Notes: generated by a model from the letters alone, not told the origin. Shown: positions 13,532-63,992, numbered from the whole stretch's first letter. The stretch is DNA of 63,992 nt, filler included, from Stramenopiles sp. TOSAG23-6 (GCA_900128565.1; 5 parts of 5 records of this genome joined end to end with filler, not necessarily neighbours in it), one strand, 5' to 3'. Numbers and translations: made by a program.

Positions 13532-13599
13532 AAAAAAATTGTTAGGTACGAAATTTCGTACGAAAAAAAAATCGAATTTGAAAAAAAAATAAAACATAC
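13532..13599 (-). other. Family intron, 5' part (cut by gap)
   Basis: act at|GTATGTTTTATTTT...TTCGTACGAAATTTCGTACCTAAC. Confidence 0.75.
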
Positions 13600-14702
13600 A
13601 TAGTCTTAGAATGAGGGCATGATGAGTCTTCGACACATATATACGAAGATAAATCTCTTAGACATTGAGTCGTATATTTTTTCAGAGGTGCAAATTCTCC
13701 TTCAGCGTGATGATGCAAGCCACGAAGAAATGTATCACTATCCTCATTTATATTTTTTTCTGTGTTTTTAGGTTTTTTTTCTGTGTTTTTAGGTTGAATA
13801 CTTTCATAGACAAAATCTAACATACGAGGATATGGTGACCATCTGTTATACCCCGGTGGGTGTGAATCTACCCAAATACGACGTTTCCCTGTAAATGCTT
13901 CTGTAGAAATTGTTCTTTCTTTAAAATTTAAAAAGGTAGGTGGGGAGAAGGCTCTCTCCAGCACGGGAAAGTCAAAGATTAAACCATAATTAAATGTTAT
14001 TGCAAAAGAAAACGCCTTTGACATAAGTATAAATGCCGAACCTAAACCTTGTCTAGATTCTGGAGCATCCATTGTGACAAAGCTACGGTATTGTACTTTG
14101 TTAGTTGTTGCCCCAGGTAAGAACATTGTATTGAGTATTTTTTTGAAACGTTCGAGGTATGTTTTATCACTATTCTCTGCTTTACTTGTATCACTTTGAA
14201 TTGTATTTTCTATAGAGGTAGAGAGAATGCCACATATTTGATCGTATGTGCTAAAATCACCAACAGCTGAAGGTATATTTGGGCCCCAGCTAGATCTAAA
14301 TTGTTTTTTTCTAATCTTTGTCGTCCACGAATATTCCTCACCAGTGCTCTCAAACTCCCCGTCAGTGCAACTTCTACCACATAGACTACTAAAACTCGAG
14401 CATGTTTCCATAAGGTGTTGCCAACTACTCACAACAAATGATGAATTTTTCACATTAAATTCAGATAGTGTAGCATCTAAGGATATTACAGAATCAAATA
14501 CTTCACCATCAATGGCTTCCGATATTACAAGCTTTGACGCGGAAACCTCATTCAAATCTTCACGAAGCCAATCAGCGAGTATTTCAACTGACCAAGTCAG
14601 AGGATTACTACTACAAGTTCCAAAACTTTTACTCGATATAATTGTCAGGATAAACAAAGCCAGGTGAAGCATTACAACATAACCAAACGTCAAAATCCTC
14701 AT
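13600..14702 (-). CDS. Signal-anchored protein with SAM-like N-terminal domain and possible fucosyltransferase-like region (3' truncated)
   Basis: Hydrophobic N-terminus. PLTWSVEILADWL..IDGEVF is SAM-like. QGLGSAF..AFSFA..LIFD is reminiscent of GT11/GT23 starts. Confidence 0.5.
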
Positions 14703-15011
14703 AATACTAGAAAATAAATGTATTTAAGAACAAATAGTTAATTATCACACAAATTATACAGTTAGTAGATAGGAAGTATTTAGTGTGTGTGGGCAGTGGG
14801 CACAGATGCACAGGATCGATTGATCAGATCTGATGACATTTGATTTGACTCGTAATATTTATTCGAGTTTTCAAATTTTTTTAGTAATTTAAATTGCAAA
14901 TTGAGTCGTAAAATTGAGAGCGAGTGTTCGAAGCAAGTTCTCTTTTCTCTTTTAATTTCTTCTAATTTAAATTTGAAAAAATTACTTTTGGGATTGGGAA
15001 CAATTTTCAAA

Positions 15012-16908
15012 ATGAGATTTTTTAGTATTATAGCCATTCTCGCTCACTGCAATATTGCAGTCGATGCCGCTACATGCACCGCAGATTGCTCTACGGAATT
15101 TATGAAGTGTATTAGAGCAAAGGAGTCTTATGCAGGATGCCATGACTTGCTTGATGAACCAAAAATGCAGAGTGCTGGGTGCGTATCTGGTTGTTCTGAT
15201 TCCAGCGAAATGGCCAAAGCAAAGATCGATTACCCAGGCGAAATAAATAATGGAAACCGAAATGCAAACAAGCCGTCGACAGGCTGTACCGAAAGTATCT
15301 TGGGAACACCCTCCACGCCAACTCTCTGTACAAAATCCGAAGCAAATCCTGCAGTGTATACCTTTTTTCCTATGAGTGGCACGTATGCAAAAACACAGCG
15401 TTACTTTTCTATATATTATCCTGGTGGTCAATGGGCCAATAGCACTAAAGCAAGACCTGTTGTATTAGAAATGTCTGGTTATGGAGGTCAAAGTTTTGTT
15501 AATGCAAATAGTAAAAGTGCTAAAGCAGCAGATCGGTATGGTTTCGCAGTCATTGACGTCAGTAGTCCACTTAACGATGGTAACGGTGGCTTTGGATTGG
15601 CATTTCCAAATAATGGAATAGCTAATGATACAAATCCAATTCCATGCAAAAAAGAAGATTCGCGTGATTTTGTATTTATTGAGGCAATCTTTACATTTAT
15701 TGCACAAAGTACCAGTGAAGTGAAAACCAAATTATTAGACGTTGAAAACGTCTTTACCATGGGATTTAGCCAAAATTCAATGTTTAGCGCTTATGTTGCT
15801 GTTTGTTTTAGTGATTTAGTGGCTGGTGTTTGGCAAGGTGGCAGTGGGCTTGCAAAGACTGGTTACAGCCCGGTTACTCCAGGTGTACTTTTTTATCATT
15901 TCAATTTTTTAGGTATTTTTTTTTCATACGTAATTTTGTACCTAACGATTTTTTTTTGAAATATGTTTTCACTTGACATGCACAAGCACAGTGTACGGAA
16001 AGCAGTTCATTAGCAAATGGCAATGATTGCTGCAAAGTTGAATTCTGCAAAGATTGTAGAGTACGTTTTTCAAAAACTTTTTATTTTTCTTTTTATTTTT
16101 TGTTGGAAGCTCCACAATAATCTTTTTCTAATAATCCCTAATATTATTTTTGTTAAAACTAACCCACCAATTCGATCCTACTTATACCCTCAAAAATCAG
16201 TACTGGCCTGTGTACCCAAAAACGTGTTCAAAGAGAATAGTTGATTGCATTGCTTCGTATACAAATGATGAAATTGCGTGTGGAACTGATTTATACATGT
16301 ATGAGGCCATGGTAAAAGAAGATAATGATGCAAGATTTTTGAGCTTTTCACCGACAACAGATATTGAAGGTGGACATAAAAACCCTCAAAATCCATGGTC
16401 ATGGAAGGCTGGCTGTCTTGGTTTATCAGTAAGCTGTACCTCGAGTTGTGAAACTTCATTCAAAGCATGTGTACAATCAGAAACAGGTAAAAGTACAGAG
16501 AAATTTGAAAATTGTGAAACTAAAATTGATGAGGAAAAGTTGATAGGATGTGTGAAAGGGTGTAGTCCAACGCTAGGAATGTTGCAATTAAGCGAGTCTC
16601 CAGTTGTCTCTCTCTCTAAAGGTCAATTTGGAACATTGACTGGTCTGACTATAACGGCCACTGCACCAACGCCAAAGTGTACAAATTCTATTGGTTGGTT
16701 CGGTGATCCTGGCTATGGAGCTTGTAGACCAACTGCAGGGACGCTACCAACTCAGGCATATACTCCAAGTGTAAGCGATACATGTGGTGCTGGTTATTCA
16801 TACAACGGAAGCGCTGGTGTTTTGAAGCACACTAGCCAAACGGGAACAAGAAAGATATCAACCATTGTTAATTTAATTGTATCGCTTGTTATGTTTCTTT
16901 CATTATAA
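15012..16908 (+). CDS. Secreted alpha/beta-hydrolase (PHB depolymerase/esterase-like), Cys-rich, possible GPI/TM tail; exons 15012-15884, 15980-16060, 16201-16908
   Basis: Signal peptide, RPVVLEMSGYGG, nucleophile-like GFSQNS, GGH, and a hydrophobic C-terminus. Confidence 0.7.
15885..15979 (+). other. Family intron, GT...AT
   Basis: cca ggt|GTACTTTT...GTACCTAAC...TTTTCACTTGACAT|gca caa. Gives an 81-nt in-frame exon up to the next intron. Confidence 0.75.
16061..16200 (+). other. Canonical GT-AG intron
   Basis: aga|GTACGT...ACTAAC...AAAATCAG|tac tgg, in frame. Confidence 0.8.
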
Positions 16909-17165: not shown

Positions 17166-18719
17166 ATGGATTTAGCTACCACCAACAGGAAAGAAAGTGC
17201 ATCAAAATCAGCTTCTGTCGCTACTTCTGCCGCAATAATCTCAGTTAAACAGTCATATAAGTTTGCAATAGCTGAGGAAATCCCAGAACTGAAAAGTTTC
17301 ATTGAGTTTAATAAGAGCGGCGATATCCCTGATAATGTGATGGCTTGGCTCATTGAATACCACCAGGAAGTGGAAAACACAAAACAACGAAGATTCACGA
17401 CACCTGTAGAAGAGCAACAAAGATTCACGACACCTGTAGAAGAGCAACGAAGATTCACGACACCTGTAGAAGAGCAACGAAGATTCGCGACACCTGTAGA
17501 AGAGCTTACCTACAATATGAAAAATATGAAAGACATCACCAAGGAAGCCAAGGAAGAGCAAGAATCAAGTTGTATTGGATTAACCAACACAGATATGACT
17601 ACTGCTAGTTCAACAAAAAAGAATAGTATCTCTGATTGCAAATTATCCATGGTTGAAAAAGCTTCTGGGCATGATGAAAAACTGAAAGAACAAACTGTAA
17701 GATTAGAAGATCATGATGAAAAACTGAAAGAACAAACTGTAAGATTAGAATCATTCAAAAATGTTTGCATTTCAGATGAAACACCAAATGAAAATAATTT
17801 ATGTACAGCGACAAATATATTCGAATATAACCCTTTATATAAAAGATATGGTATTACTTCACATTTTCGTCGGAAAATAGAAAAAGGAGGTACACTTGCT
17901 TCTAATGAAACGCGTGACATTGGCCGTGAAGGTATACCTGAGGGTAATGTTTCAAAATGGAGCTTGGAGGATATTCAGAAGATGTCAGAAGCATCTCTAA
18001 AAAGAACAAATAGCATCATTAAAAGTAAATCAAGTAGAATACGTATGATAAACGATAACAATCCATTATTAAAGTATGGCTTGAGAGGATATCATCGGAA
18101 GTCATTAAGAAATAAATATGAACAAAATATATACATGCGAAAGATTAACTTCGATCATATGCTAAATGAAGTAGATAAAAAGTCTCAGCCGTGTGTGACA
18201 AGTAGCACAGAAAAAGAATCCGTGATAAAATTAGACACAGTTAGAGTTGGTACAACAACGGAATTTGAGGGAAATTTGAAAATAATTATTGATAAAATAA
18301 TTACAGATGTAATAAAAATAGCTGAAAGACCTACAACAACAACTCAAATAAGATCAATCATTAAGGAAAGTAAGGAAGCATATGCGACAGTTCAAGAAAA
18401 AACAATTAAAAAGAACATTGAAGAGTTTGCAAACTACGTGAAACCAATTACTTGTGAAAAGCACACAAAAATAATAGACAGCTCAACAAAGTGTATCGAT
18501 ACTATAAAATTTGAATCTAAAAGAGAAAAGAGAAGAAAAAAGAAAACTTTATATTCAAGATTATTGCGTCAAATTCTAATACCAATGAAAGTGGCGAAGA
18601 CAGTTGGCTCTTCTGCATCCGCTTCAATACGCGCACACTCACCAAGAAAGCGTTATAGACAATACAGAATAAATTCTAAAAAGAAAGCTATTGATTTAGA
18701 TGAATTTTTAAATGAATGA
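17166..18719 (+). CDS. Hypothetical low-complexity protein with tandem repeats
   Basis: 517-codon ORF with no recognisable domain. Confidence 0.55.
   Translation: MDLATTNRKESASKSASVATSAAIISVKQSYKFAIAEEIPELKSFIEFNKSGDIPDNVMAWLIEYHQEVENTKQRRFTTPVEEQQRFTTPVEEQRRFTTPVEEQRRFATPVEELTYNMKNMKDITKEAKEEQESSCIGLTNTDMTTASSTKKNSISDCKLSMVEKASGHDEKLKEQTVRLEDHDEKLKEQTVRLESFKNVCISDETPNENNLCTATNIFEYNPLYKRYGITSHFRRKIEKGGTLASNETRDIGREGIPEGNVSKWSLEDIQKMSEASLKRTNSIIKSKSSRIRMINDNNPLLKYGLRGYHRKSLRNKYEQNIYMRKINFDHMLNEVDKKSQPCVTSSTEKESVIKLDTVRVGTTTEFEGNLKIIIDKIITDVIKIAERPTTTTQIRSIIKESKEAYATVQEKTIKKNIEEFANYVKPITCEKHTKIIDSSTKCIDTIKFESKREKRRKKKTLYSRLLRQILIPMKVAKTVGSSASASIRAHSPRKRYRQYRINSKKKAIDLDEFLNE
17391..17505 (+). 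repeat. 30-bp tandem repeat x~4 (RFTTPVEEQR)
   Basis: AGATTCACGACACCTGTAGAAGAGCAAC(A/G)A repeated. A second duplication with a 42-bp period lies at ~17670-17750. Confidence 0.9.
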
Positions 18720-19616: not shown

Positions 19617-19674
19617 AATTATCATTAAGTAAACTTAAATAAAACAAGTTGTATTATAGAGAATAATATAATTA

Positions 19675-19703
19675 CCCTAACCCTAACCTAAACCCTAACC
19701 CTA
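19675..19703. repeat. Interstitial telomere-like (CCCTAA)n
   Basis: CCCTAACCCTAACCTAAACCCTAACCCTA. Confidence 0.85.
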
Positions 19704-21933: not shown

Positions 21934-24561
21934 ATGAAGTATTTAATCATCTGTTTAACGCTACTTTGTGCGACAGTTGGTGAGGCAACTCTAACGCATA
22001 AAGTATTTATTGAATATTTGAGAGAAAATCAAACCCAGGAGGCAGAAACTTTGGCACAAAAGTATATTGATGACGTCGACGTCCACGAATTACCGCCTAA
22101 TTTCTTGGAAGAAGGTCTCGCGTATAGCTTAATAAATTCAAGAATGGAGTTAGCTAAGTCTTTTTTGTATAAAGGAGCACATGTAACTGAAAGTATTTAC
22201 AAAGACTTTATCAGAAGAGGAAAACACGAAGAAGTAGAGTTGCTATTTTCTTTCGATGACAGAACAGATTTAAAATTTAATTTGCTGCAATTTGCGCTCG
22301 ATCTTCAGGGGAGGGACGTAAGGAGTCTACAATGGGTTTTTGAAATTGCTTACAAGGATGGAATTAGTATAGATGATTTTGAAATTAACAAACACACCGC
22401 ACTAACGTACTGTCTTGAATCAGAAGAAATGACTTTAGTTTCGGATTTAGTAACAAAATATAAAGTAGATGTTGATAAAGTGGATGCTAGTGGTTACAGC
22501 CCGCTTCAAATTGCTTTGAAAATGTTAGAGACTGAAGACGCCGTGGGTCATGTCGAAGGTCTTCGTAATGTTATACTACTATTCTTACATAATGGTGATG
22601 GAAAAATAGCTTTCAAAGGAAGTAGTTCTGGTGAAACACTCCTTACTTGGCTTCTGAAACGCGAGGATGTTCATGGAATAATTGAGTACTTATTGGATGC
22701 TAAAGGCGTAAATATTAATCAAACGAATGACAATGGTGAAACACCCCTTGAAATCTCTTTAAGATTTAGGGGTACCGGTGATTATTTTACGACAGAGAAA
22801 CTCCTAGAGAGAGGTGCTGATCCTAAACAGAGATTACGCGGAGGAGAAACATTGCTCACTAGTCTTCTGAAATTTAAAGACTGGAAAATGATGAAGGATC
22901 TTCCAGGTTTATCGATTCTTGCTAATCAAATGAATGCTCATCATGAAACACCGCTTTCAATTGCGGTCGCTCAAAATAATTTGGATGCATGCAAATTTCT
23001 TGTACATGATTTCGAAGCTGATATAAATGGATTTAATGGTCTCGCAATGGCAAAGGCATCTAATAATGCAACAGTTACACACCATACTGGAGAGTATAAA
23101 CTTATACTTGACTACGTTGATGTATTTTTTATTTTTTTGAATTTGTATTTTTTTTTCGTACAAATTTGTGTACCTAACAAAATNTACAAAAAAATATATA
23201 TTTTCACGATACATGGGCGAAATTATCCACAATACGAACAATCAAATGGAAATAATTATCTATATATTGGTAGACAAGAAACGATGCAAATACTTGGGGT
23301 CTCTGGATCTGGTGATTTTATTCGTCCTTTCCCTGGTGGTGATCTATATGGAGACTTTGTTGTAGAAACAAAAGGCGGATTACGAGGACTAACTAGTCGT
23401 GTATTCCATTTGTCAGATTGTCAGGCAAAAATTGTTGCTTCTCGGATCCAAATTGAGCCTATGAACATTAATAGTAATTGTCCTAATCAGGATATTATAA
23501 TTATAACGGATTCGTATGAAGAACTGGATTCAAAGTTAACGTATCTTCGTGTGAAGACATTATTAGATCTAGGAGCGGATGGAAATATTGTGTTTAAAAC
23601 TGATGTTATACCAATTATTCCCTCGGTTACACCAACTGAATCTTTACCCTGCCCTACAGGGGTTACACCACTGTACATCTTTACGCAAAATGGACATCTA
23701 GAAATTGTTGACGCGTTATTGAAAAGTGGAGTTGATGTTAATAAAACTGGAAATGACACTTCGATGTTGGAAGCAGCATTAAATGAGATAACTGATAGCA
23801 AAATTATTGAGAAATTATTGGAGCATAAAGTCGATCCTTTTGGAAATGGTGCTTTATCAGAGTATCTTAAGAGAAAATCTAAACCATCTCCTATCATTGT
23901 TCAGCTTCTATTAGATTATGGAATTAGTATGAATTCTGGTTACATTGGTGACTGCGCTTTATCTGAGTCTTTGAAATTGAAATTGAATGATATTACTCAA
24001 ATGATATTAAGTACTAATCCTCGTATTGACACTCCAATGCTTGTGGATGCAATGATGAACCCAAATTATGACGTTGATCGATATGTCTTTGAAAAAACGT
24101 TTGGCGATAAAGAATATAGAAAGAAATTACTATTAGCTGCGAAGATGCTTCATTTTGCTAAAAGAGATGATGTTGTTTGCGATGTTTTACAGAAACTTTT
24201 GCCATATATGAACAAGGCACAAGATAAAATTGCCTTGAGGAATATACAAAACTGTTACATTCACACTGGAAAAAGAGTTAATGATGTTTTTGGTACCTTA
24301 TCTAAAGATGCAGTTGAAGTGAGTGTAGGCGGCGGGGCAGCGACCGATTCAGAACATTTGAAAACTGATGCACGCCAATTGGAGCCCGAGCCGGAGCTCG
24401 AGCCGCAGCCGTTGACAGAGAATCAGCGGAATCAGGCGAGGAAGCTCGCAAATCGACTGGGGCACAAGGCAGCTGAAGAAGAGAAACTCCCGACGCAAGC
24501 GAGTGCTTTAGTGGGTACTATATTAGATGAATTAATTGAATCTCTTTTAAAAAAATTTTAG
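21934..24561 (+). CDS. Ankyrin-repeat protein with N-terminal signal-like peptide; one intron
   Basis: GYSPLQIAL, GETPLEISL, GVTPLYIFTQNGHLEIVDALLKSGVDVN. Confidence 0.85.
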   Translation: MKYLIICLTLLCATVGEATLTHKVFIEYLRENQTQEAETLAQKYIDDVDVHELPPNFLEEGLAYSLINSRMELAKSFLYKGAHVTESIYKDFIRRGKHEEVELLFSFDDRTDLKFNLLQFALDLQGRDVRSLQWVFEIAYKDGISIDDFEINKHTALTYCLESEEMTLVSDLVTKYKVDVDKVDASGYSPLQIALKMLETEDAVGHVEGLRNVILLFLHNGDGKIAFKGSSSGETLLTWLLKREDVHGIIEYLLDAKGVNINQTNDNGETPLEISLRFRGTGDYFTTEKLLERGADPKQRLRGGETLLTSLLKFKDWKMMKDLPGLSILANQMNAHHETPLSIAVAQNNLDACKFLVHDFEADINGFNGLAMAKASNNATVTHHTGEYKLILDYVDVFFIFLNLYFFFVQICVPNKXYKKIYIFTIHGRNYPQYEQSNGNNYLYIGRQETMQILGVSGSGDFIRPFPGGDLYGDFVVETKGGLRGLTSRVFHLSDCQAKIVASRIQIEPMNINSNCPNQDIIIITDSYEELDSKLTYLRVKTLLDLGADGNIVFKTDVIPIIPSVTPTESLPCPTGVTPLYIFTQNGHLEIVDALLKSGVDVNKTGNDTSMLEAALNEITDSKIIEKLLEHKVDPFGNGALSEYLKRKSKPSPIIVQLLLDYGISMNSGYIGDCALSESLKLKLNDITQMILSTNPRIDTPMLVDAMMNPNYDVDRYVFEKTFGDKEYRKKLLLAAKMLHFAKRDDVVCDVLQKLLPYMNKAQDKIALRNIQNCYIHTGKRVNDVFGTLSKDAVEVSVGGGAATDSEHLKTDARQLEPEPELEPQPLTENQRNQARKLANRLGHKAAEEEKLPTQASALVGTILDELIESLLKKF
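23122..23214 (+). other. Family intron, GT...AT (93 nt, stopless)
   Basis: gat|GTATTTTT...TACCTAAC...TTTTCACGATACAT|ggg. Confidence 0.75.
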
Positions 24562-26840: not shown

Positions 26841-26939
26841 GTATGTTTTATTTTTTTTCAAATTCGATTTTTTTTTCGTACGGAATTTTGTACCTAACAA
26901 ATTTTAGTTTTTTTTTTTGAAATATTTTTCCAAAATACA
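26841..26939 (+). other. Family intron (end at gap)
   Basis: at|GTATGTTTT...GTACCTAAC...TTCCAAAATACA. Confidence 0.75.
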
Positions 26940-27039
26940 NNNNNNNNNNNNNNNNNNNNNNNNNNNNNNNNNNNNNNNNNNNNTTAATTAATTAANNNNN
27001 NNNNNNNNNNNNNNNNNNNNNNNNNNNNNNNNNNNNNNN
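26940..27039. other. Artificial contig linker
   Basis: N + TTAATTAATTAA + N. Confidence 0.97.
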
Positions 27040-27910: not shown

Positions 27911-28092
27911 GTATATCTTTTATTGTTTTTTCAATTTTCAATTTATTTTTTTTTTCGTACGAAATTTCGTACCTAACAAACATTTTATGATTTTTTTTGT
28001 TTTATTTTTTCGTTGACTGTCGCGACTTTTCGTTTTTTTCGTATTTCGTGTTGAGTTGATTTGTCAAATTGTCAATTTCGACACAATTTCAG
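27911..28092 (+). other. Family-derived element, possible first intron of pantothenate kinase (GT..AG)
   Basis: Contains TTCGTACGAAATTTCGTACCTAAC. Ending at ACACAATTTCAG|ATG would join an 11-codon exon (27878-27910) in frame. Confidence 0.45.
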
Positions 28093-33293: not shown

Positions 33294-33469
33294 AGAAAAC
33301 AAAAAAAACATTTTTTTAGGGTTGTAGGTGCGAAATTTTCTATGAAAAAAAAACGAAATTGAAAACTACTGAAGAAATATCGTGACAAAAAAGTCATTTG
33401 AAAAATTTTGTAATTTCATAATTTCAATGTATAAAAATAATAAATTAAATTTTCAGATTGTATTTTTTT

Positions 33470-40398: not shown

Positions 40399-40498
40399 NN
40401 NNNNNNNNNNNNNNNNNNNNNNNNNNNNNNNNNNNNNNNNNNTTAATTAATTAANNNNNNNNNNNNNNNNNNNNNNNNNNNNNNNNNNNNNNNNNNNN
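40399..40498. other. Artificial contig linker
   Basis: N + TTAATTAATTAA + N. Confidence 0.97.
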
Positions 40499-52400: not shown

Positions 52401-53729
52401 TCCACAACTACATGTATAGCTTCCTGGTGTGTTTGTGCATTCATCGGTACATGGTAGATGATCATATCTCTGATCTGAGTCATATTCACATGTTCCCTCT
52501 GGAGATAAAATTCCATTGTATGGACATTTTGTGCAAATACCAGCAGTTTTATCGGCATTTGAACCAGAACATTCTAAGCAGCTACTATGGCATTGAATTG
52601 GACTCGGATCAATACATTCATTGACATCGACGCACTCAGGATATTTTTGTAGACCTTTCGAAAAGAACCCATGAGTTGGCAATTGGTGGTACCATCCAAG
52701 GTGGCATTTCAAATGGGGTACAGTGTACATTTTTTTCCCATGCTTTGGGATCAATTTTCCAGCAGTTGACTGTCCAATACATAATGACGCTTTATATGTC
52801 ACGGTTGTTACTTTTCCCAGCGATATTTCTTTTGTAGAGTTTTCAAGATAAGCGCCTTCTGCAAATTCTTCAAATCCTGTCTGGATAACGTTAATATCAA
52901 GATATTTATTATTAGCATCTTGTGAATGTGTAACGACTTCTGCTAATTTCCCAATAGCACCGTACTTCGTAGGTGAGCTTTGGATAATTGTATCCCCAAT
53001 TGAAATAGTTGTTTGCGAATCTTTTCCGTATGAAATGCCCACCATCTCTGCATGATCCCCTCCGACTGAAATCTCAAAGCCTATACATTCTTGTGTTGTT
53101 TCGCACTTTCTACGACACTCCAGGATTGTTCCTTCGATACTAAACAATGGAGCATTTGATGAGGAGTACACATAATTATCTTCTGTGGAAGACCATTGAA
53201 ACCTAGTTCGATAAGGTCCATCCCTGTAATACGATATTTCCTGATCTAGAACGGCCTTTGAATTCACTGGGGGTGGCATTATATAACCATTATTTATGTG
53301 GGGAACTCTACATAATTTAGAAAATGCATCATGATTGAGCTCTATTCGTGAATTTGGAAGAGGTGTGTATCCTAAGGGACAATCCATACACTCTATATCA
53401 CACCACGAGTGTTTACAAATATATAATACCTCACCGAGATCACACCGACCACAAGTTGTATTACATATACTTCCACAATCAACACCAGTTTCATTTTGAT
53501 TTTGTATACGATCATTACACGAAGGGTCAACTGGAGTGACAAAAGATAGTTTTGGGGACAAAAGCTGATTTGTAGCACAATATACACCATAGCGAGTCCT
53601 CGCCGCAAAAAAAGAAATACCTGTAGGACTCCCAACATCGTTTTCGAGTGATGTCACTGGTTCATTTGCCTGGAAAAGATCTTCAGTCAATATTATTACT
53701 TCTGTACCAGTAACAGATTCCGCTACCAT
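40499..53729 (-). CDS. Giant (>4350 aa) extracellular-type mosaic protein with EGF-like, FN3-like and beta-rich repeats; both ends likely incomplete; one intron
   Basis: CVDVNEC, CTNTPGSYTCSCGKGY, CHCTGGFTGSFC, PSPPRN..W..PYDGG. Two long ORFs join through a canonical intron. Confidence 0.85.
49025..49124 (-). other. Canonical GT-AG intron
   Basis: gtc|GTAAGT...CTAAC...TAACAG|gga aat, phase 0, in frame. Confidence 0.85.
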
Positions 53730-53818
53730 CCCATGCCTTTCGCCTTGATAGATATTCTGACCTTTGGTATATCTGAATTGTCAAAACCGATATATATTAT
53801 TCCTGCTCATTTAGAAGC

Positions 53819-53918
53819 NNNNNNNNNNNNNNNNNNNNNNNNNNNNNNNNNNNNNNNNNNNNTTAATTAATTAANNNNNNNNNNNNNNNNNNNNNNNNNN
53901 NNNNNNNNNNNNNNNNNN
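53819..53918. other. Artificial contig linker
   Basis: N + TTAATTAATTAA + N. Confidence 0.97.
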
Positions 53919-54008
53919 TTTCAAAAAAAAAAAACTAAAATTTGTTAGGTACAAAATTTCGTACGAAAAAAAAAATTCGATTTTTTGTAAAAAAAAAATA
54001 AAACATAC
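53919..54008 (-). other. Family intron (3' end cut by gap)
   Basis: cat|GTATGTTTT...TTTTGTACCTAAC. Confidence 0.75.
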
Positions 54009-56164
54009 ATGCTGTTGTTCCCAAGGTGGTAAATATTGTTCTGTCATGGCAATTTTTTCACGTTCTTTTCGACGACGCAGGTACTGTGAAAAAATATGTT
54101 TTCCGTTTGAAATTCGTTAAGTTTGTACTAAAATTGGATTACTTACATTGGAATGATAGAATTAGGTACAAAAAAAAAACACATTTAAAATTAAACCGGA
54201 CAAAAGCGTACAAGAAGATAAGACGTTTTAAACAAAAATTGTGAAGTACAAAATTTTGTACGAGAAAATATCAATTTGAAATTAAAGCGGACAACGTACA
54301 ACCTCTCATTAGCTTGTTTCACAATATCAGGATGCGGTGAACTAATGCTTACACCATTCATACTATCATACTGCACTGAAGGCTCCTTTGAATTATTTGA
54401 GCGCATTTGTATCACATGTATTCCTATAAATAAAGTGCAACAAGGGCAAATTATATGTTGAATGTCAAAGTTCCATTTGTCATGTGAAATTGTTCAAGTA
54501 TTGTGAAAAAATATTTGAAATTCAACTTTTTTGTTAGGTGTAAACTTCAGTATAAAAACAAAAAATAGGTAAAAAAAATCAATTTTGAAAATGTACGCTT
54601 CACATCCGATGCACCAACACAGCGACCATCGCCAATGCAGTAAGTATTATAACTATCTTCGAGAGACACATTAACTAATGGTGACTTCTGTGATGATACA
54701 CTAAGCCTTTCTTTATTTAATGCACTGTATCCCGCAATACTTTGTACTCTACAAATCGTATGCTCACAAGCACTGCAGCATAGCATTGCACTGGTAACAT
54801 TTTGACCTATTTCAAATGCAAGATTCCGACCAAGAATATTTTGATGTTCACAAGGATGTGAGCCACGAAGTAATGGATACTGTGATTTATTCCGCGCTTT
54901 CTGAATTGACTTTTTCAATGCCTGTCGGTGAAGTCGATTTGCTCGATTGAAATATTTGGACATGAGCTCTCTACTTACCATTCGTTCTCTTCTCTGACGA
55001 CGTAGAAGTCGTCCATATAAAACATGAGCCATCGCACGGACATAGATTGTAAAAAATAGTAAGAAAAAAATTGTTAGCTAACCCTAATCCTAACCCAAAA
55101 GAATTTCATACAAAAAAAAATTTCAAAAAAAAAAATCAATTTTGAAAACGTACTCTGTCGACTATACCTACATTATTATTGTTATTGTTTCGCCCTCGTC
55201 TTACTACTGCAGCGCTAAGATTAATGGGCGCTGTTTTTTGAAAAAATATTTTAGAAAAAAAATCATTAGGTACAAAATTTCGTACGAAAAAAAATTCGAA
55301 ATTGAAAAAAAAATAAAACATACCTGGAGGCTCCGGTGTTTCTAATCTCAGATCTTCTTCGTCGTCCGAAAAAGCAGCGGTTAAAAGAATAGGGACTTGC
55401 CACCTGGATGACTCAGATTCGATTTCATCAACATTTGATGGAATATTTGATGGAACATTTAATTGAATATTTGATGGAACATTTGATTGAATATTTGATG
55501 GAACATTTGACTGCTCACTTGGTATCGTATATATATTATGTGGAATAGTAGTAGAATTTCTATATTCTTCATGTTCGATATGAATTTCAGTTGGAATAGT
55601 ATGAATAGGATTTACAACGTCATTTGGTTGAATTACAAGCATATTATCTGTTGTATTTTCTCCTACGTCGATCATTTCCTCAACGTCAATTGAATTTTCT
55701 TTAGACTCCGAGACACTTTGATTTGATACTACGCCATCAAATTCAAATATCCTACTTTGATTCAAATTAGTCGATTCTCTATTATCAAAAAATATCACAG
55801 GCAAGTGTTCAATGTTGCTATCCATGTTCCCCCCGTTATTCATAGAGCAACCAGCAGGAGTTGGAGTTGCTGCTCTAGAATTGGGTCCTCTTATAATATC
55901 CATAGGCTGATTCCAGTGATTATTTTCAGAACTGGTAGCCCCACCTCCTTGTTCCGAGCTGAAACCATTCATTTGAACTTGATGAACGCGTGGATTTGTA
56001 AAGATATTCGTGGATAAGCTGTTAGTACTGGGTTCTATTACAGCTGCACCGTTCAATTCTTGTACAGTTGATGGGTCTCTCCTGAGCGGTATTAGCAGAT
56101 TTCTCTGAACTACTTCTTCATCATTTGATGAAATGGCAATAACAGGATCAGAATCTTTCCCCAT
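54009..56164 (-). CDS. Protein with disordered N-terminus and Yippee/Mis18-like Zn-binding region (3' truncated); exons 56164-55324, 55230-55154, 55041-54597, 54495-54300, 54078-54009
   Basis: CSACEHTIC...HIICPCCTLFIG pair. All exon phases join consistently. Confidence 0.6.
54079..54299 (-). other. Expanded family intron, GT...CT
   Basis: tt|GTACGTT...TTTTCACAGTACCT|g cgt. Contains more than one partial core copy. Confidence 0.65.
54496..54596 (-). other. Family intron, GT...TT
   Basis: aag c|GTACAT...CCTAAC...TTTTCACAATACTT|ga aca. Confidence 0.72.
55042..55153 (-). other. Family intron, GT...AT, with telomeric insert
   Basis: aga|GTACGTTTT...GGGTTAGGATTAGGGTTAG-CTAAC...TTACAATCTAT|gtc. 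Confidence 0.72.
55231..55323 (-). other. Family intron with canonical GT-AG ends
   Basis: cc ag|GTATGTTTT...GTACCTAAT...TTCAAAAAACAG|cg. Confidence 0.8.
55430..55511 (-). repeat. Exonic tandem repeat (SNVPSNIQ)
   Basis: ATTTGATGGAA(C/T) units with 12/24-bp period. Confidence 0.8.
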
Positions 56165-56510
56165 ACTTTAAATACTGATCAAAACTATAGGTAATGTATT
56201 CCCGTTGCTGTTGTTCGAAAAAAAGAGGTATTATATACCTTTCGAACAATATAATAGAATAAAGTGAGATGCGTTTAACGAATGTGAAGAAAGTTCCTCG
56301 GTCAAATACCGATTTTTTATTAAGTACGAAAATTCGTAGTAAAAAATTAACTAGTGTCCTTGATTGACACGATTGAATTGATTCTGAATTGATTAAATTG
56401 AGATTATTTTTTCATTTTTTTTTGAGGCGTTTCGGGAAGTAATTCATCGATTTGGTGTGATTGGCATGATAGTTCTATAATTTTGTGTGGAATTATCGCC
56501 ATTATATTGG

Positions 56511-57724
56511 ATGGATACGAACGCAGATGACTATGATATTTCCCCTCGTTCATACAGAAAATGGTTGCAAAAAAAGAAGGAAAAAGTGATACGAGTCGAC
56601 ATTGCAACTCGTAAGAGGTGTGGTTTAATGTTGGATAGAGTAGGAACTTGTATGAGCAAAGAACTATCTGGACGATTGGAGAAGTGTATATTTAATCTGT
56701 TTGGAGATGATAAGAAGAAATATGCTCGAATTGCGAGGACTATTTGTAAAAACTGTACAAAGCATGATTTCATTCTTTTTGCGCTTGTTGAAGGAAGACT
56801 CAAACCAGATACACTTTGTTCAGAGGCCAATATTGCTGGAGAATGGGTTCGTCGCCTACTTCGATATCATGCACCAGCTGTATTAATTACGGTACCATCG
56901 ACTTTGCAATGTTTACCTGACCCAGTTGTTACAACAATCTTTAATTTTCTGAATGCAGTCGATCTGGGTGTTGCTTCTGCTACTTCGATTTTGTGGAGGG
57001 ATTTTTGCTCTCTCAATAAATTCTGGGCATATCATATTAGCCAAGCTAAATATAAAAAAAAACTTGAATACATTGATAATGGTACTATTTCAACTACGAT
57101 TGCCTCGTCACTGAAATGTACGTTTTCATATCAATTTCGAATTTATTTTATTTCGTACCAAATTTTGTACGTAACAAAAAACATTTTCAACCAAAAAAAA
57201 ATATTTTTTCACAATACGTGTAATCCTTCTGGTTCCAGAACCAAAAGAATGAAACGTACATTGTCGAACATCTCTTCTAAAGTAACAGATCCCCAAGGTA
57301 GGAGAAATGCTGACTCAAAAGTTGAAAGATCCCCATATTGTATTCAAAGAGAATGTTTGAAGGATGAATATATAAAATTGTTTTATTCGAAGAAAAAAAA
57401 AAATTGGTACGATTTATCAGGTACAAAAAACTCTGCTAAAATCTGTAGCACAAAATTTCCTGTTGAGGACCAATATTGCATTTGTCCTCGTTGTAAGGAT
57501 GATGCTACTATAGTTTCATATACTGGTAGAGGGTTGTATGTTTTATTTTTTTCAATTTTTTATCTAAATAGTTTTTCGTACGAAATTTTGTACCTAACGA
57601 ATTAAAAAACTTATATTTTTTTTCACAATACATAGAATATTATAAAATGGGAGTTTGCAATTCATGCTCAAATCAGTTTATGATTGAGAATGCAAATGTT
57701 GGAAAATGCCATACCAAAACTTAA
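56511..57724 (+). CDS. TFIIS-central-like + F-box + Zn-ribbon protein; exons 56511-57117, 57220-57535, 57634-57724
   Basis: LEKCIFNLFGDDKKKYARIARTICKN; LQCLPDPVVTTIFNFLNAVDL..W; CPRC...CNSC. Confidence 0.7.
57118..57219 (+). other. Family intron, GT...GT (102 nt, stopless)
   Basis: aaa t|GTACGTTTT...TTTTCACAATACGT|gt aat. Confidence 0.7.
57536..57633 (+). other. Family intron, GT...AT
   Basis: tt|GTATGTTTT...TTTTCACAATACAT|a gaa. The AG 2 nt downstream gives a stop within four codons. Confidence 0.8.
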
Positions 57725-57906
57725 AATTTTATAGTCCCGGTACCTTTTACGTAGTAGGATTCGATTTTTTACAGTTTCATTTTTTCGCAGAGTTTGTTGA
57801 CTGGTGAAGATGTGAAGTATCTTGACAAGAACAATAAGTTGTGTGTATTAAAAATAGTTATAAAAAGTATCAAATAAATGTGTTCTTTCCCCGGATGTTT
57901 ACATAA

Positions 57907-60900
57907 ATGCCAGATATAAACAAGACTAACCCAGTTGAGATGACTCAGTGTTCTGATCCCCTCTGTCGTATGTATTTAAATAAGCCATTCGCAGCAATGA
58001 TGATTGGTTTAAAAGATGGTGCTCGTATTATTCAGCTTCACGGAGTAATACACTGGGCGTCACTCGTTTCTAGACTTCGCCAGATATCGCTCCCTTGTAT
58101 CCATGGAGAGTATAGCCCTAATAATAGGAAACCAATTGCAATTTTACTTCGAGAGGAAAGTATTGTCGTTTTATTTGAAAATATTAGTGACGCCATTCGA
58201 ACAGCCCATGAAATTTGTGAATGTTGTAAGGAGAATAATCAGAAGTATAAATTGGCTTCTAAAGGAAGTAAAAATCATCGACATTACTCAATTCCGTTGA
58301 AAGGTATTGTCATTGATTATGGTAATTCTATAATTATTGATAAAAAAGAAAAGATGCATGGGAAAGTGGCCCTTCAACTGAAGCAACTGCTGAGTGACTG
58401 CGCCGAGGGGAAAATCCTTGTATCGAGTTCAGCTTTCAAAGCACTTTCTTCACTATGTGAGACGTCTACTCGAGTAAAACGAATATTCCGTGAAGCATCT
58501 TGGAGTTCTTATAAAGGTACATCATGCTTTGATGGAGGAATTCGTATAAAGACTAAACTTTCAGCGTATAATAACTTTGACTATGTACGTTTTATATGAA
58601 TTTCTAATTTATATTTTTTTCATACGAAATTTTGTACCTAACAAATTTGAGTTTTTTTTTTGAAATATTTTTTCACAATACATACTGGAACACAATACGC
58701 AATGTTGACCCAGAGACTTGACCCAAAGGATATTATAAAAACTGATCAACTCCTCAAGCATTTCGTGAAGTGTAGTGTGGTACTTGCAGTATGTATCAAT
58801 GTTGACCGCATACAAAGTCGAACGAATGTGTCAGATGCTGTCTTGTGCTCATTGCATGTAAAAGCTGCTTCTCTAAGACTGGTGGAAGAAGCATGCAGTA
58901 AGTTTGGTGGATGGGAAATAAGCGATGCTATATTTGGATTTAAGGATGTTTTGCAAGCAGCATTAGCCGCGCTATACCTTCAAGAGTTAGTAAAAAACAG
59001 CTTAGCCAAAGCAATGGAACAAAAGGTAGCAGAACAAAAACAGAACTTTCTGAAAAAAACAGGTAAAGAAATGATAAAAAATAATGGTACATCTCAAATT
59101 AAACCTCACTCATTTTCTTCCCCACGTTCCAAATCAAGATCACCATCTCCTGTACGCGCATCTACATTTCAGAAACCATGGATATTATATAGTGAAGTTG
59201 CAAAATCAATGGTTGGCATTGCCATTGAGTGTGGTACTATTTTAGTTGTACCACGAACAGATATATGTTGGGGTGAAGCTGTGCGTAAAGCCACAGCAAT
59301 GGCAAATGAAGCTGCAGAAGGTGGACAATTAGTCATATCAGGAAAGGTGTATGATACATTATACTGCCTCCCACGAGCTGTGGAAAGAATGATGTTTTTG
59401 AAAAAGAAGATGGCAAAACATCCTCATCAACGTAAAATGATGTCAGCGATTGGAGTTACATCTTTATTCACGGTTGCGGGAAAAGGAGATACACTATTAG
59501 AATCTAAATTGTCAGAGGAAACTAAAATAATAACTAAAGAAACAGGAAAACAGAAACAGAAACAGAAAAAATATAGTAGGAAAAAAAATATTTCTAATCA
59601 AGATAATTCCAACGAAGAAGTTCTCGATAATAAATGGGCAAAATTGTTTTTCAAGAAGCCAGTTGCAGTTCTTGCAACAAAACTCCAATCGATTTCAAAG
59701 TTATGTAAAAATCATGGTTCAATTCACATGGTATCTATTATTCTCCGGTTTCGACAATTAGTTTTACCACATATATATAAATGTGAGCCATTATTTGTGA
59801 AAACGGAAGTCGATAAATTATTTGTGGTGTTTGACACAACAGCGGCTGCAGTGAAAGCCGGTGTGTACTTATATGCGGTGATAAATGAGTTTGTACGTTT
59901 TCATCATTGATTTTAATTTGTTTTGTTTATACCTTGGATAATTTTATTTAGATACCTAACGATTTTCGAATGTGGTATAGTTTTTCACAATTCATAATTC
60001 TCGCATCGGATCAGCACCTAGTAAGAAAAAATTTGCGGTTCCACTAGCTGCCGTGGCTATTGCTTGGGGGAAAGGGGTCGTTGTAGATGTCGAAGATAAA
60101 ATACATGGCTGGCCTTTTCATATGGCGCAAGCTATGGTGGAAAACGTAGGTTTGCAGTGCGACTTAGTTCTTTCTGTCGATGCATACGAAAAGATAGAGA
60201 GCATCTCAGATTTTTCCATGGCCAGATTTTACACACAAAAGAAAAGTAATATTGTGCGATTGGATCCAGAATCACTAATAGACAATATTGAAAATCTCGT
60301 GATAACTCCATTGAATGACTTTACTCAAGTTTCAAGAAAAGCAAATTTGTTTCTTAAACGAATGGATATCAAACCATCAATGTCTTCGATGGAGCAAGGT
60401 AATCTGACAAAAATGCAAGATCGGTTATTACGTCGGAAGTATCTAAAACCATGTGCATTTGTTGTGATTCACCTTGAATTACACTGTGGTAATGCTGTGG
60501 ACACACTTGGTGCAAAGTTTGCTCTTCTTCCCAAACTAAAACAAATTTTTGTAGCTCATGGTGCTAGCACTGTCGAGGATGTATTATATATGTTTGATGA
60601 AGTTTCATCTGCAATAGTTGCAGCGGTGGAGGTATGGAGATTTGTTCATTCGCTTGATTCAGAAATGAATGTTCTTAGGGGAATTGCTGTTGGTGGAGGA
60701 GATTTATGTCTCGTGTATGGTACAGATATTCACTACGGCGATTGTCTCAACACGGCATTTCATCTTGCTCAAGTTGAGGCAATAAATGGAGAATTATTAT
60801 TATCAAATGAAGCATTTCAATTAATACCACTTCCTATGCCAGATTTTCATGGTAGACCGTACGGTGATGACTTACTTCCAGTCACGAGATTGATGAATAA

Positions 60901-61711
60901 ATGTTTTAATGGAATTGAAGTAATAAAAGATCACACAAAACGAAATGGTGTGACATACGTATATTATGAACTGAGAGAATCGGGAAAAGGCAAACATATA
61001 CAAAAAGTATTCCAACGATCCATGAAAGTACCCAAATACTTGAGTGGGTATCTATCTTCATCTGAAAAACAGTTTGATAAATCTGAAGAAATCATAAATA
61101 CAAAGTGTATAAAAAAACAAGCCAAATTGGGATTGTCTGGGTTTAAAACTGAAGATTCTCGACTTGGTACATCCTATCTCCGCCAATTCGACCCTTTTAT
61201 TCATTATCTACATAAAAGTAATCCCCCCATAGAGAACATGCATGGTCATCGACAAGATAGCATTCAAAGTCTAGACCAAAGGATTCGACCAAAACCTTTA
61301 TATTTACCTTCATCACACCATGAAATTATGCGAGATGCAGTGGCCCACTCTGATAAATATGGTCGTACAGCAGGCCACGCTTACTCAATATCACCTCGCA
61401 AAGGTCTTTCAAGAAAAATTGATATGGAATCAAGAAGAAAGAAATTAAAACCAATGGGATCTATACCGAAGATACATAAATCTGAGACATTGGAATCAAA
61501 TTCTAATTTTGTTTCTATTGGAGATCAGTTGAATTCATCAGAGGAATCAGATGAACAATCAATGTTTGAGAAACTAGATGCTTTAGATCCAACTGCTGGT
61601 GTATTAATGAGAAAACTAATTGGTGCTAATTGTAACCCATATGCAAAACCCATTTGTAAAGAAAAATGCTGGTTCAATCATGATAGAGGTTTATGGATGA
61701 AGATAGAATGA
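57907..61711 (+). CDS. Protein with four degenerate class III nucleotidyl-cyclase-like domains; exons 57907-58584, 58684-59892, 59996-61711
   Basis: Four GIxIxxG...xxGxxxxxAxxL...GxxxxS segments. Confidence 0.65.
58585..58683 (+). other. Family intron, GT...AT
   Basis: tat|GTACGTTTT...GTACCTAAC...TTTTCACAATACAT|act. Confidence 0.8.
59893..59995 (+). other. Family intron, GT...AT (an in-frame AG exists 15 nt upstream)
   Basis: ttt|GTACGTTTT...TACCTAAC...TTTTCACAATTCAT|aat. Confidence 0.65.
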
Positions 61712-61782
61712 ATGAATTTCTATATAAAGAAATAAGTTGTTTATTACTTGTATTTTGTATTATCTTTTCATTCAGTAATATT

Positions 61783-61877
61783 GTATGTTTTATTTTTTTT
61801 TTCAATTTCGAATTTATATTTCGTACGAAATTTTGTACCTAACGAATTGTTTTTTGAAATATTTTTCCAAAATACTT
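61783..61877 (+). mobile_element. Full family copy with TT direct repeats, antisense within the PfkB gene end
   Basis: tt[GTATGTTTT...TTCGTACGAAATTTTGTACCTAAC...AAAATAC]tt. Confidence 0.75.
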
Positions 61878-63535
61878 GACATTGCAACCACTGTGGACAT
61901 TCATCCATTCTTGTACCATACTATTAGTAAATGGCTTGGTACATGCGCCTTTTTGCTCTACACACATTGCTCCACATGCACTTGCATAAATTTTGAAAAA
62001 ATATTGTTTTTATTAAAAGAAATCGTTAGCATTAGCTACTCCGGATCAATCTAAAATTACAAAGAAAAACAAAAAAAAAAGGACAGAAACAAAAAACAAA
62101 GAAAAACAAAAAAAAGGACAGAAACAAAAAACAAGCATATGAAAACATAATCAAACTACTTAAATATAAAGAAAAAGACGAAACATCATTTATCGCTTCA
62201 CTTCAAGGTGACAAAAAAGGAGTTCAAAAACGTATTGAAGCAATGTACAAAATTTCGTACGAAATAAAAACATCAAATTCGAAATTAAAATGAAAACGTA
62301 CATACACCAGAGCATTATGAAGCGTCTCATTGGAAGCATTATTTCGTGCAGGTAACCAAATATGCAAAAAACCTGCATTAAAAGCATCACCAGCTCCAGT
62401 AGAATCCACTTCCACCACCCCTTTGAAAGGAGAGCAACGAAAAAAAAATCTTCCCTTTTTATTGACAATACCAAATACAGTGAAACATATTTCAAAAAAA
62501 AAAATTGTTAGGAATTTTTGTACGAAAAAAAAAAAATATTTCAAAAAAAAATTGTTAGGTACGAAATTTCGTACGAAAAAAAAATCGAAATGAAAAATGA
62601 AAACGAACGATAGCACTGCCGCGTTTATCTAATTTAATGATGCAGATGCGTTCACGAATTGAATGCATTGAATTTTCTTGCTTATCTGTAGAACAAGAAT
62701 TATTTTTCATCATCATATCTAACAATTTATTAAGGACAGATAATAAAACACTCTCTGAAGTAGGGTTAGGGTTAGTACTATGACTTTTTAAAGTATCTTT
62801 AGGGTTAGGGTTAGAAGGAGTCGTTGAAGCAGTTAAATTAGTATTTGAGATGGCAAACGCTTCACTCTCTGATGGCAAGAAGACAGTGATTAGCTTCAAT
62901 AATGTATAAATATCTCTTTCAAACCCAGTCCATTTACCGCTTGCATCATATTGAGGGTCTAGCGACACTGTTAGAGATAAACTATTGTCTGTAATTCGAG
63001 TTTTTATAACTTGAGAAAGAACACCATTTTGTAAACCATTGCAACTGAAATATCCACCAATGTGTAAATGATCTACTCCATTGAATAAATTCCGGTTGAC
63101 ATGTGTCATGTTAAACGCAGAGACACATCCACGACAACTTACAAAGGCACGTTCTGCTTTGTCATTTACCAGGACCAAACAAGTTGCTTGTGATTCTCCA
63201 TTCAGTACTATTACACTATCTGACGTCAAAACTAATCCCTCAGAAAACAGCTTTGAGAGAACCCAACGACCAAGATTACAACCACCAACAGCACCGAATA
63301 GCCTAACACTATGAACACCTAATCCGCCAAGCAGTCGTGCAGTGTTACAACAACCACCACCAAGTAATAAATCAACCGAGTGTACCTCTCGGTCTTCACC
63401 CCAGGCAGGAATACTTGAGAGTTGTGAAGTATTAACATCAACAAAAATATCTCCTATACATCCAACTGAAGTTCCCCTGTTTTGGAAATAATACCATTTC
63501 CCAAAGAAATACTTCCAAATTGTATTCATATACAT
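61839..63535 (-). CDS. PfkB-family carbohydrate kinase; exons 63535-62609, 62472-62302, 61985-61839
   Basis: GGGCCNTA, FLPSESEA, VDSTGAGDAFNAGF, ALVY|ASACGAMCVEQKGA. Confidence 0.9.
61986..62301 (-). other. Expanded family intron, GT...AT
   Basis: tat|GTACGTTTT...GCTAAC...TTCAAAATTTAT|gca. Internal duplication at ~62060-62133. Confidence 0.78.
62473..62608 (-). other. Family intron, GT...TT, with duplicated branch region
   Basis: atc|GTTCGTTTT...CCTAAC...CCTAAC...TTTCACTGTATTT|ggt. Confidence 0.72.
62761..62814 (-). repeat. Two exonic telomere-like tracts read as NPNP
   Basis: TAGGGTTAGGGTTAG at 62761-62775 and 62800-62814. Confidence 0.8.
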
Positions 63536-63908
63536 GACATTGTTTGAGACAGTGTATACAAAGTAGTCTCAAATTAAATCTCGGAAATCACAAATTGACT
63601 TTGACAAATTGACTTTGTTTGCGTTTGACCGTTTGCAAAATCCTTTCACGTATTTTCGCCGTATTTCGTGTTATTTTCTATAAAAAGTTAATGTAAACAA
63701 CAAATGATAAAATAATATGGTTCAGGTTCATGTGGATGTTCGGCCATCCAGGGGTACTATACGAGACAATTAAAGTATTATTTAATGGTAAAGAAAAAGA
63801 GAGTAAATTCAGAAAAAAACATTTAATGCAAATTATAAAAACTACCAGTACAGATTTCAATCTCAACCATCTAATAAGTCTGAACATGAATAAAAAGTAT
63901 CGTGAAAA

Positions 63909-63992
63909 TATGTTTTATTTTTTTTTCAAATTCGGTTTTTTTTTTGTACGAAAATTTTTACCCAACGATTTTTTTTTTTTAATTTTTTTTTT
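63909..63992 (+). other. Family copy cut by window end, donor region reads ATATGT
   Basis: TATGTTTTATTTT..CAAATTCG..TTGTACGAAAATTTTTACCCAAC. Follows an open frame from ATG 63730. Confidence 0.5.

Follow-up and report, generated by a model that had tools for sequence, protein, structure and literature searches.

In Chrysochromulina (4-base duplication) and in the IE1 elements of Micromonas pusilla (3-base duplication), introners bring their own donor, and their acceptor comes from the duplicated target, which, in the available extracts of the two papers, always provides an AG (PMC9860276, PMC11282704). Other ends have been described as well. The introns of Fritillaria borealis that derive from miniature inverted-repeat transposable elements (MITEs) have mostly AG-AC and AG-AT termini with a TAC repeat (PMC11282704), and the introner elements of Amoebophrya show inverted repeats of 8-20 bases that pair their ends, direct repeats of 3-5 bases and no fixed terminal dinucleotides (PMC7789003), both as set out in extracts of these papers. 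Here we report on a DNA stretch of 63,992 bases from Stramenopiles sp. TOSAG23-6 (GCA_900128565.1), hereafter the window, in which an earlier note had pointed to a family of repeated elements with GTA...TAC termini and a 2-base flanking duplication. Our results suggest, with a probability of about 0.6, that these elements are an introner-like family of an AT-rich marine eukaryote, the acceptor of which lies within the duplicated target.

As far as the accessible parts of these descriptions go, the family resembles the introners of Chrysochromulina and Micromonas in consisting of short non-coding elements that form many similar introns in unrelated genes, in bearing one splice site while the other one lies in the duplicated target, and in leaving the mRNA length unchanged after insertion and splicing. 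It differs from them by a repeat of 2 bases instead of 3-4 bases, by an end other than AG in 20 of 21 copies and by inverted ends of 4 bases. With Fritillaria it shares a non-AG acceptor formed by a repeat of the preceding exonic bases and the coexistence of canonical GT-AG introns; in this tunicate, however, the donor is non-canonical too, whereas the protist family has a textbook GTAYGT donor and a CTAAC branch-like motif. The likeness to Amoebophrya lies in repeated non-canonical introns bordered by short direct repeats, on which gene prediction restricted to canonical sites fails, and the difference lies in a constant donor and in the absence of a predicted end-to-end stem (z from -0.9 to +0.6). 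Judged in part from their descriptions, the family is set apart from these systems by the combination of a canonical donor and a branch-like motif with a non-AG acceptor located in a 2-base repeat, and by the lack of end pairing. No description of it was found in the parts of the literature consulted; it may be listed, unseen by us, in a survey of 2022 that included TARA-derived genomes, and one comparative paper on marine stramenopile (MAST) genomes does not use the word 'intron' at all. Large introner surveys, in the extracts at hand, start from annotated introns and accept AG and AC as acceptors.

Results

A repeat family in unrelated genes

Rather than a single molecule, the window comprises five contig pieces of 13,431, 13,408, 13,359, 13,320 and 10,074 bases, in falling order of length, separated by spacers of the form N44-TTAATTAATTAA-N44 (13432-13531, 26940-27039, 40399-40498 and 53819-53918). 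The core motif CGTACGAAATTTYGTACCTAAC matched it 21 times with at most 3 mismatches, compared to no match in 100 shuffles. An nhmmer profile built from 12 clear seed copies gave 63 hits, many of them echoes of the palindrome on the opposite strand, and these hits were merged into 42 loci. E-values of 0.01 or less were obtained for 31 loci and of 0.1 or less for 33 loci, with no hit at E ≤ 0.01 in five Markov-resampled windows. The alignment of 21 copies gives the consensus GTAnGTTTT...AATTTCnAATTT..T-run..CGTACGAAATTTTGTACCTAAC...AAATATTTTTTCACAATACAT, the same as the string from which the earlier note had counted more than 25 copies, and the 31 loci bear this count out. The copies had been assigned to the interval 13532-63992; they are found there, but also upstream of it, at 5-95, 433-539 and 13302-13384. 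Single copies measure 91-123 bases (median 99) and two doubled introns 136 and 221 bases. Short inverted ends (GTA/TAC), also part of the first description, are present but reach over just 4 bases of the consensus (GTAT/ATAC), 6 bases being attained only by counting AT flanks. Identity to the nearest copy is up to 0.91, and parts unrelated to splice signals (AATTTCGAAATT, an 18-base palindrome and GAAATATTTC) are common to copies at up to 91% identity.

The host genes are unrelated and at least 12 in number. They encode a PIKK kinase, a HECT ligase, an ankyrin protein, a pantothenate kinase, a DDX19/Dbp5-like helicase, a Cid1-type nucleotidyltransferase, a PHAX-like protein, an F-box protein, a pfkB kinase and several unknowns. 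All three phases are represented, as had been noticed at first reading (11 introns in phase 0, 3 in phase 1 and 6 in phase 2, n = 20). Almost every copy is oriented in the sense direction of the transcribed sequence, and fragments occur in non-coding DNA (27911-27981, 31324-31355, 33310-33366 and 56312-56346). Four of the nine contig ends fall inside copies, which represent 4.0% of the sequence (binomial probability of about 3e-4); this fits a high-copy repeat that breaks the assembly. Scanning metagenome contigs with a 19-base core gave four stretches, among which a single family copy (L003), flanked and terminated by AT, in phase 1 of an unrelated open reading frame (ORF). The same scan gave no match in viral contigs, and its one match in prokaryote genome contigs, in a Bacteroidales metagenome-assembled genome, was treated as chance and not examined. 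No known RNA family was matched in Rfam. An index of sequencing runs listed five RNA rows with 7-22% and DNA rows with 34-97% of the words sampled from 53919-63900, shares that give no evidence of expression, habitat or polymorphism.

Three internal palindromes of the element (AATTTCGAAATT, CGTACGAAATTTCGTACG and GAAATATTTC) are each made of inverted GAAAT half-sites, and look more like protein-binding sites on DNA than like RNA stems. Halves of the element are duplicated in tandem at 62473-62608 (3' half), 54079-54299 (5' half) and 13302-13415 (3' end), all on the minus strand; the first two of these copies each act as one longer intron.

Intron junctions and splice signals

Removal of the elements was assessed in the register where the donor is the element's own GT and the acceptor lies two bases after ...ATAC (register R1). 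Of 20 testable copies, 18 then had their longest downstream frame in phase, one third being expected by chance. One of the two exceptions sits at a C-terminus and the R1 frame of the other carries the kinase motif DSTGAGDAF. Retention would meet an in-frame stop in 15 of the 20 copies. Conserved proteins fix four junctions to the base, with no AG at any of these acceptors. In the helicase, removal of 32972-33094 joins ...DHDTYLHR to GRTGRFG via an ATT codon and restores motif VI as HR-I-GRTGRFG, with isoleucine in 19 of 19 aligned homologues, while removal of 32621-32740 joins ...LRDK to YNVGKLTGS via GGG, glycine being present (K-G-Y) in all 19 homologues. The nucleotidyltransferase reads LFGSSVN-GFGSEGSDMDM without 38819-38914, and the pantothenate kinase reads RDL-CATGGGAHKY without 28836-28933, a junction where the nearest AG would break the frame. 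The claim that removing the element together with one dinucleotide copy restores the ORF is borne out by these frames and by the exact protein motifs, from which we infer that the elements are removed as spliceosomal introns. For the exon translations 54597-55041 (-) and 57222-57533 (+), no transcript-derived protein crossing the junction was found within the length ranges searched.

The donor has G at +1 and T at +2 in 22 of 22 copies, and its consensus GTAnGTTTT is GTRNGT-like. Under R1 a pyrimidine occupies position -3 in 22 of 22 copies and T occupies position -1 in 21 of 22. A branch-like motif is present in 19 copies (CTAAC in 14, CTAAT in 3, GTAAC and CTAAAC in one each), 31-44 bases before the junction and separated from it by T-runs. 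The introns end with AT in 13 cases, TT in 4, GT in 2 and CT in one (n = 21), and only the remaining one has the AG end of U2-type introns. This agrees with the earlier proposal that the target, and not an AG, supplies the acceptor, which lies in the second copy of the dinucleotide. U12-type introns tolerate non-AG acceptors; they have an RTATCCTT donor and a branch site about 10-20 bases from the acceptor. The likeness of the family to them is superficial, being limited to the first four bases GTAT and a CCTAAC-like motif, and a U12-type intron was rejected because the donor GTAYGTTTT lacks ATCCTT and the motif is 31-44 bases away from the junction.

When the flank and the intron end carry the same dinucleotide, three cut positions are equivalent, and the mismatched copies decide the register. 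At 32621-32740 (flank GG, end AT), R1 alone gives the conserved glycine and a register shifted by two gives methionine. At 54496-54596 the shifted register reads GTG AAT TGA, with a stop, according to a reading of the sequence by hand, and this register would need nine different starting dinucleotides. On account of the mismatched copies and the constant GT donor, we describe the introns as GT...NT.

A canonical intron of 100 bases (GTAAGT...TTCTAAC...ACAG, phase 0) is present at 49025-49124 (-). It has none of the family blocks and joins frames of 1567 and 2858 codons in phase. A canonical GT-AG intron in the same window makes the family a distinct class, and not just the splice signal of the lineage. 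A candidate intron of 54 bases (GTAAAC...GACAT) lacking the family core was seen at 34868-34921 (-); it would end with AT and would join two ORFs in frame.

The helicase protein eukprot:GSMAST32.ASY1.ANO1.451.1 (P0003) is the only protein of a large collection identical to a window gene. Its model is spliced at GT...AG pairs, by which YNVGKLTGS and DHDTYLHRIGRTG, including motif VI, are lost. The gene models of the assembly are probably wrong wherever the family sits.

The two-base flanking repeat

Flanking dinucleotides were analysed in the 21 window copies with both ends, relative to shuffled-pair expectation. The copy at 26841 (last base lost in a gap), the copy at 62230-62301 (shortened, uncertain context) and the outside copy L003 were left out. 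The flank is identical to the intron end in 10 of 21 copies compared to 6.1 expected (p = 0.022), and the other 11 mismatch, in keeping with the earlier statement that some copies do. Among copies of at least 36 bits, 8 of 10 match compared to 4.1 expected (p = 0.0066), with four different dinucleotides, and below 36 bits the matches are 2 of 11 compared to 1.9 expected (Fisher p = 0.009 for match by score class; Spearman 0.60, p = 0.004). A second proxy of age, the identity of the inner part averaged over the three nearest copies, calculated without the profile, the donor and the terminal dinucleotide, was also correlated with matching (Spearman 0.65, p = 0.0012; Mann-Whitney p = 0.0017). Matches are seen in all of the six determinable copies with the highest similarity (AT, AT, TT, AG, GT, AT). 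In the window copies, the identity of the two dinucleotides is in excess over shuffled pairing and concentrated in the least diverged copies, a comparison with copy age that the earlier note had proposed. With about 22 copies the statistical backing is moderate, p ranging from about 0.02 to 0.001 according to the test. The individual pairs GT/GT at 5-95, TT/TT at 61783-61877 and AG/AG at 55231-55323 are as first described; seven of the eight AT/AT copies then counted are complete, and the eighth, at 26841-26939, runs into an assembly gap after the A.

As a register control, neighbouring positions were compared, and no locus-specific excess was detected at -6 to -3 or at +0 to +5. The excess is found at -2 (12 of 22 copies, 8.3 expected, p = 0.044) and, weaker, at -1 (18 of 22, 16.3 expected, p = 0.09). 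Among the 11 mismatched copies, 8 differ at one base, and a hand reading indicates that 4 of these 8 are synonymous between registers (CTG/TTG, AAA/AAG, ATC/ATT and TTG/CTG). This is what drift in a coding flank would leave, a proportion that is not significant by itself. Other duplications were considered and rejected. Duplication of TA with the register moved by one base, in the style of Tc1/mariner, fails by eye in 39104-39204 and other copies, and a 3-base duplication including the donor G would have the downstream exon start with G, which it does in 14 of 22 copies, equal to the shuffled expectation of 14.0. We read these data as a real but modest 2-base duplication that would arise at insertion and erode with age, in a sample too small for certainty.

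Acceptor choice and RNA structure

A block TTTTTYCA..ATAY, constant in old and young copies, stands directly before the two variable bases. An earlier YAT, at least 10 bases after the CTAAC motif, is present in 18 of 19 copies and an earlier AG in 5 of 19. As these are passed over, the acceptor is not chosen by scanning; the conserved 3' box may position the cut. The folds of the sense strand were no more stable than shuffles in 5 copies (z from -0.93 to +0.63), and the paired ends typical of the hairpin-type introns of Amoebophrya and euglenids were not observed. The consensus structure consists of a central hairpin of 7 pairs alone, 0 of which covary. RNA structure as the organising principle was rejected on these two grounds.

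Host genes and catalogue of copies

The GC content of the window is 33-40%. Its coding sequence is of eukaryotic type and contains frames that stay open over great lengths, 26 of them for at least 200 codons. Pfam matches include a HECT ligase, the end of a PIKK-type kinase, ankyrin repeats, Sel1 repeats, a pantothenate kinase, a DEAD-box helicase, a Cid1-type nucleotidyltransferase, a uricase, an F-box and a pfkB kinase. The copies are listed in Table 1. The full-length copy at 34252-34353, which is antisense to its ORF and open in frame, may be translated as about 34 extra residues. The 3' end of the copy at 63910-63992 lies beyond the window.

Table 1. Copies and fragments of the family in the window. 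Flank, two bases upstream of the element; end, last two bases of the intron; pairs such as AT/AT give flank and end.
Feature	Position	Strand	Details
Family intron, PIKK-kinase gene	5-95	+	upstream flank GT, last two bases GT
Diverged family intron, same PIKK gene as 5-95	433-539	+	phase 2; flank GT, end AT
Partial copy (profile positions 12-99), near 5' end of HECT-ligase ORF	13302-13384	-	ends ...CACAATACAT; no recognisable donor
3'-end-like piece	just upstream of the 13302-13384 copy	-	additional fragment
5' part of copy, cut by contig end	13538-13599	-	donor at 13599, flank AT
Family intron	15885-15979	+	phase 0; donor GTACTT, flank GT, end AT
Family intron, ankyrin-repeat gene	23122-23214	+	phase 0; AT/AT; 93 bases, no in-frame stop
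Best-scoring copy (57.1 bits)	26841-26939	+	flank AT; last base lost at contig end
Non-coding copy between Sel1-repeat and pantothenate-kinase genes	27911-27981	+	degenerate 3' part
Diverged family intron, pantothenate kinase	28836-28933	+	phase 2; flank CT, end TT
Palindrome-only fragment, upstream of helicase coding start	31324-31355	.	profile and core matches
Diverged intron 1, DDX19/Dbp5-like helicase	32621-32740	+	phase 2; donor GTAGGT, flank GG, end AT
Intron 2, DDX19/Dbp5-like helicase, inside motif VI	32972-33094	+	phase 2; AT/AT
Degenerate fragment, non-coding stretch between convergent genes	33310-33366	-	E = 0.0034
Family intron	33758-33850	-	phase 0; AT/AT
Full-length diverged copy, antisense in 352-codon minus-strand ORF	34252-34353	+	102 bases, open in frame
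Family intron	36836-36937	-	AT/AT
Family intron, nucleotidyltransferase (same gene as 36836-36937)	38819-38914	-	phase 0; AT/AT
Family intron, PHAX-like gene	39104-39204	-	phase 0; AT/AT; out-of-frame AG 5 bases before junction
5' part of copy, cut by contig start	53934-54008	-	donor at 54008, flank AT
Doubled copy, two tandem 5' halves, one 221-base intron	54079-54299	-	phase 2; flank TT, end CT
Family intron	54496-54596	-	phase 1; flank GC, end TT; alternative register gives stop codon
Diverged family intron	55042-55153	-	phase 0; flank GA, end AT; TTAGGG-like insert
Family intron, sole copy with canonical AG end	55231-55323	-	phase 1; AG/AG
Palindrome-only fragment between divergent genes	56312-56346	.	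profile match
Consensus-like intron, F-box gene	57118-57219	+	phase 1; flank AT, end GT; registers synonymous at mismatch
Consensus-like intron, F-box gene	57536-57633	+	phase 2; flank TT, end AT
Family intron	58585-58683	+	phase 0; AT/AT
Diverged family intron	59893-59995	+	phase 0; flank TT, end AT
Family copy, coding context uncertain	61783-61877	+	TT/TT; open frame upstream just 32 codons
Shortened copy without CTAAC motif, near end of pfkB-kinase gene	62230-62301	-	flank AT, end GT
Duplicated-3'-half copy, one 136-base intron, pfkB kinase	62473-62608	-	phase 0; flank TC, end TT
Copy cut by window end	63910-63992	+	starts ATATGTTTT, A instead of G at first position

Several other features of the window were recorded. 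Two giant frames, 876-13250 and 40454-53780 (-), cover about 25.7 kb, or 40% of the window, and contain 0 of the 31 family loci, an outcome with a chance of about 0.6^31 under uniform insertion; selection, expression or chromatin are possible causes. Telomere-like CCCTAA/TTAGGG repeats are found in an intergenic position at 19676-19703 (+) and within the diverged intron 55042-55153 at 55070-55100 (-). The PHAX-like gene shows a change of frame at an A-run at about 39445 (-), either a homopolymer assembly error or a real frameshift. Tandem coding repeats occur as 108-base units in the Sel1-repeat gene (27253-27684, +) and as 30-base units in an unknown ORF (17385-17534, +).

Discussion

The observations can be assembled into the following scenario. 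A unit of 91-123 bases, longer if doubled, would have multiplied through the genome, and its copies would now serve as spliceosomal introns of many unrelated genes. Each copy carries the donor GTAYGTTTT, a palindrome adjoining the branch-like TACCTAAC, a T-rich tract and the conserved 3' box ...ATATTTTTTCACAATAC, and splicing would proceed from the GT of the element to a point two bases beyond this box. The last two intron bases, which in the least diverged copies appear as a repeat of the last two bases of the upstream exon, would most simply be read as 2 bases of the target that were duplicated on insertion, AT or NT targets being preferred. This second copy would then supply the acceptor, giving introns that end with AT, TT, GT, CT or, once, AG, and the position of the acceptor would be set by the 3' box and not by scanning for a dinucleotide. 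We infer that insertion took place at the DNA level. Transposition as DNA is plausible but unproven, as is the origin from a MITE-like DNA transposon put forward in the earlier note.

Several points weigh against this scenario. The terminal inverted repeat of 4 bases is below the 6 bases expected of a MITE or DNA transposon, scanning of window ORFs revealed no transposase domain, and no longer, autonomous element with the same ends is present there. The sample is small, about 22 copies, and the 36-bit threshold was picked after the data had been seen. Taken singly, positions -2 and -1 give just the p values of 0.044 and 0.09, and the identity at -1 is partly compositional because T is frequent there on both sides. 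The 11 diverged copies show no excess, and decay of the repeat is assumed for them. Two of the ten most consensus-like copies, at 57118 and 57536, do not match.

The same family could have spread at the RNA level, by reverse splicing, reverse transcription and recombination, or by another route without target duplication, in which case the terminal AT would belong to the element and the matches with the flanks would reflect a preferred ...AT| context and base composition. We consider this unlikely, while granting that no dinucleotide is as frequent as AT, either in the upstream flank (8 of 21 copies) or at the intron end (13 of 21), that the terminal T is kept in 11 of 11 diverged copies while the flanks vary, and that the short inverted ends and the nearly constant sense orientation would both suit it. 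The non-AT ends TT, GT and AG nevertheless co-vary with their own flanks in consensus-like copies, which is unexpected for an inherited dinucleotide, and neither a full-length antisense copy in an exon nor non-coding copies would be expected from reverse splicing into mRNA. A quite improbable alternative keeps the elements as introns but shifts the register by two, placing the donor in the upstream dinucleotide and the acceptor right after ...ATAC. Most introns would then be AT-AC, a known compatible pair of termini, the 10 matching copies give an identical mRNA either way, and the box ends in a YAC-like TAC. This register conflicts with the glycine conserved in the helicase and with the stop it creates at 54496-54596, and besides its nine starting dinucleotides it leaves GTAYGT two bases off the normal donor register.

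Mobility itself may be questioned, if the shared sequence were made of unusually long splicing signals of the lineage, required of all its introns. It is indeed at the donor, at the CTAAC motif and in the 3' box that diverged copies are most conserved, as signals would be, but a canonical GT-AG intron of the window has none of the family blocks, and the similarity between copies extends to the non-signal parts. Fragments and an antisense copy also lie outside introns, contigs break inside copies, and the flanking repeat depends on divergence; we regard this possibility as very improbable. Programmed excision from DNA, comparable to that of the internal eliminated sequences of ciliates, would formally be the same operation, as it leaves one copy of a short repeat. 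The elements are present in the assembled DNA, however, and a sequencing-run index reports parts of this stretch in other DNA runs. Their flanks are not TA, and canonical donors, branch-like motifs and T-tracts are found in them, so that this last explanation appears barely credible.

Returning to an introner-like family with its acceptor in the duplicated target, a stronger version can be put forward tentatively, and we hold it to be somewhat less likely than not. The spliceosome would ignore the last two bases altogether and use the 3' box ...TTTTTCACAATAC as a ruler, cutting two bases downstream, such that any 2-base duplication would serve, while GT-AG introns would still be processed. The family would then comprise thousands of copies and a large share of the introns, and gene models based on GT-AG would be systematically wrong.

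Standard gene models probably mis-splice genes that contain introns of the family, as exemplified by the helicase database protein devoid of motif VI, and annotation-based surveys that accept AG or AC only, as in the published extracts, would overlook or misinterpret a family of this kind. Bursts of intron gain are at present best explained by introners, and the few cases with non-canonical ends, in Fritillaria and Amoebophrya, ask how far the spliceosome can relax. The association of a textbook donor and a branch-like motif with acceptors that hardly ever read AG would isolate the acceptor step as the relaxed one, and the conserved 3' box provides a concrete candidate for the signal.

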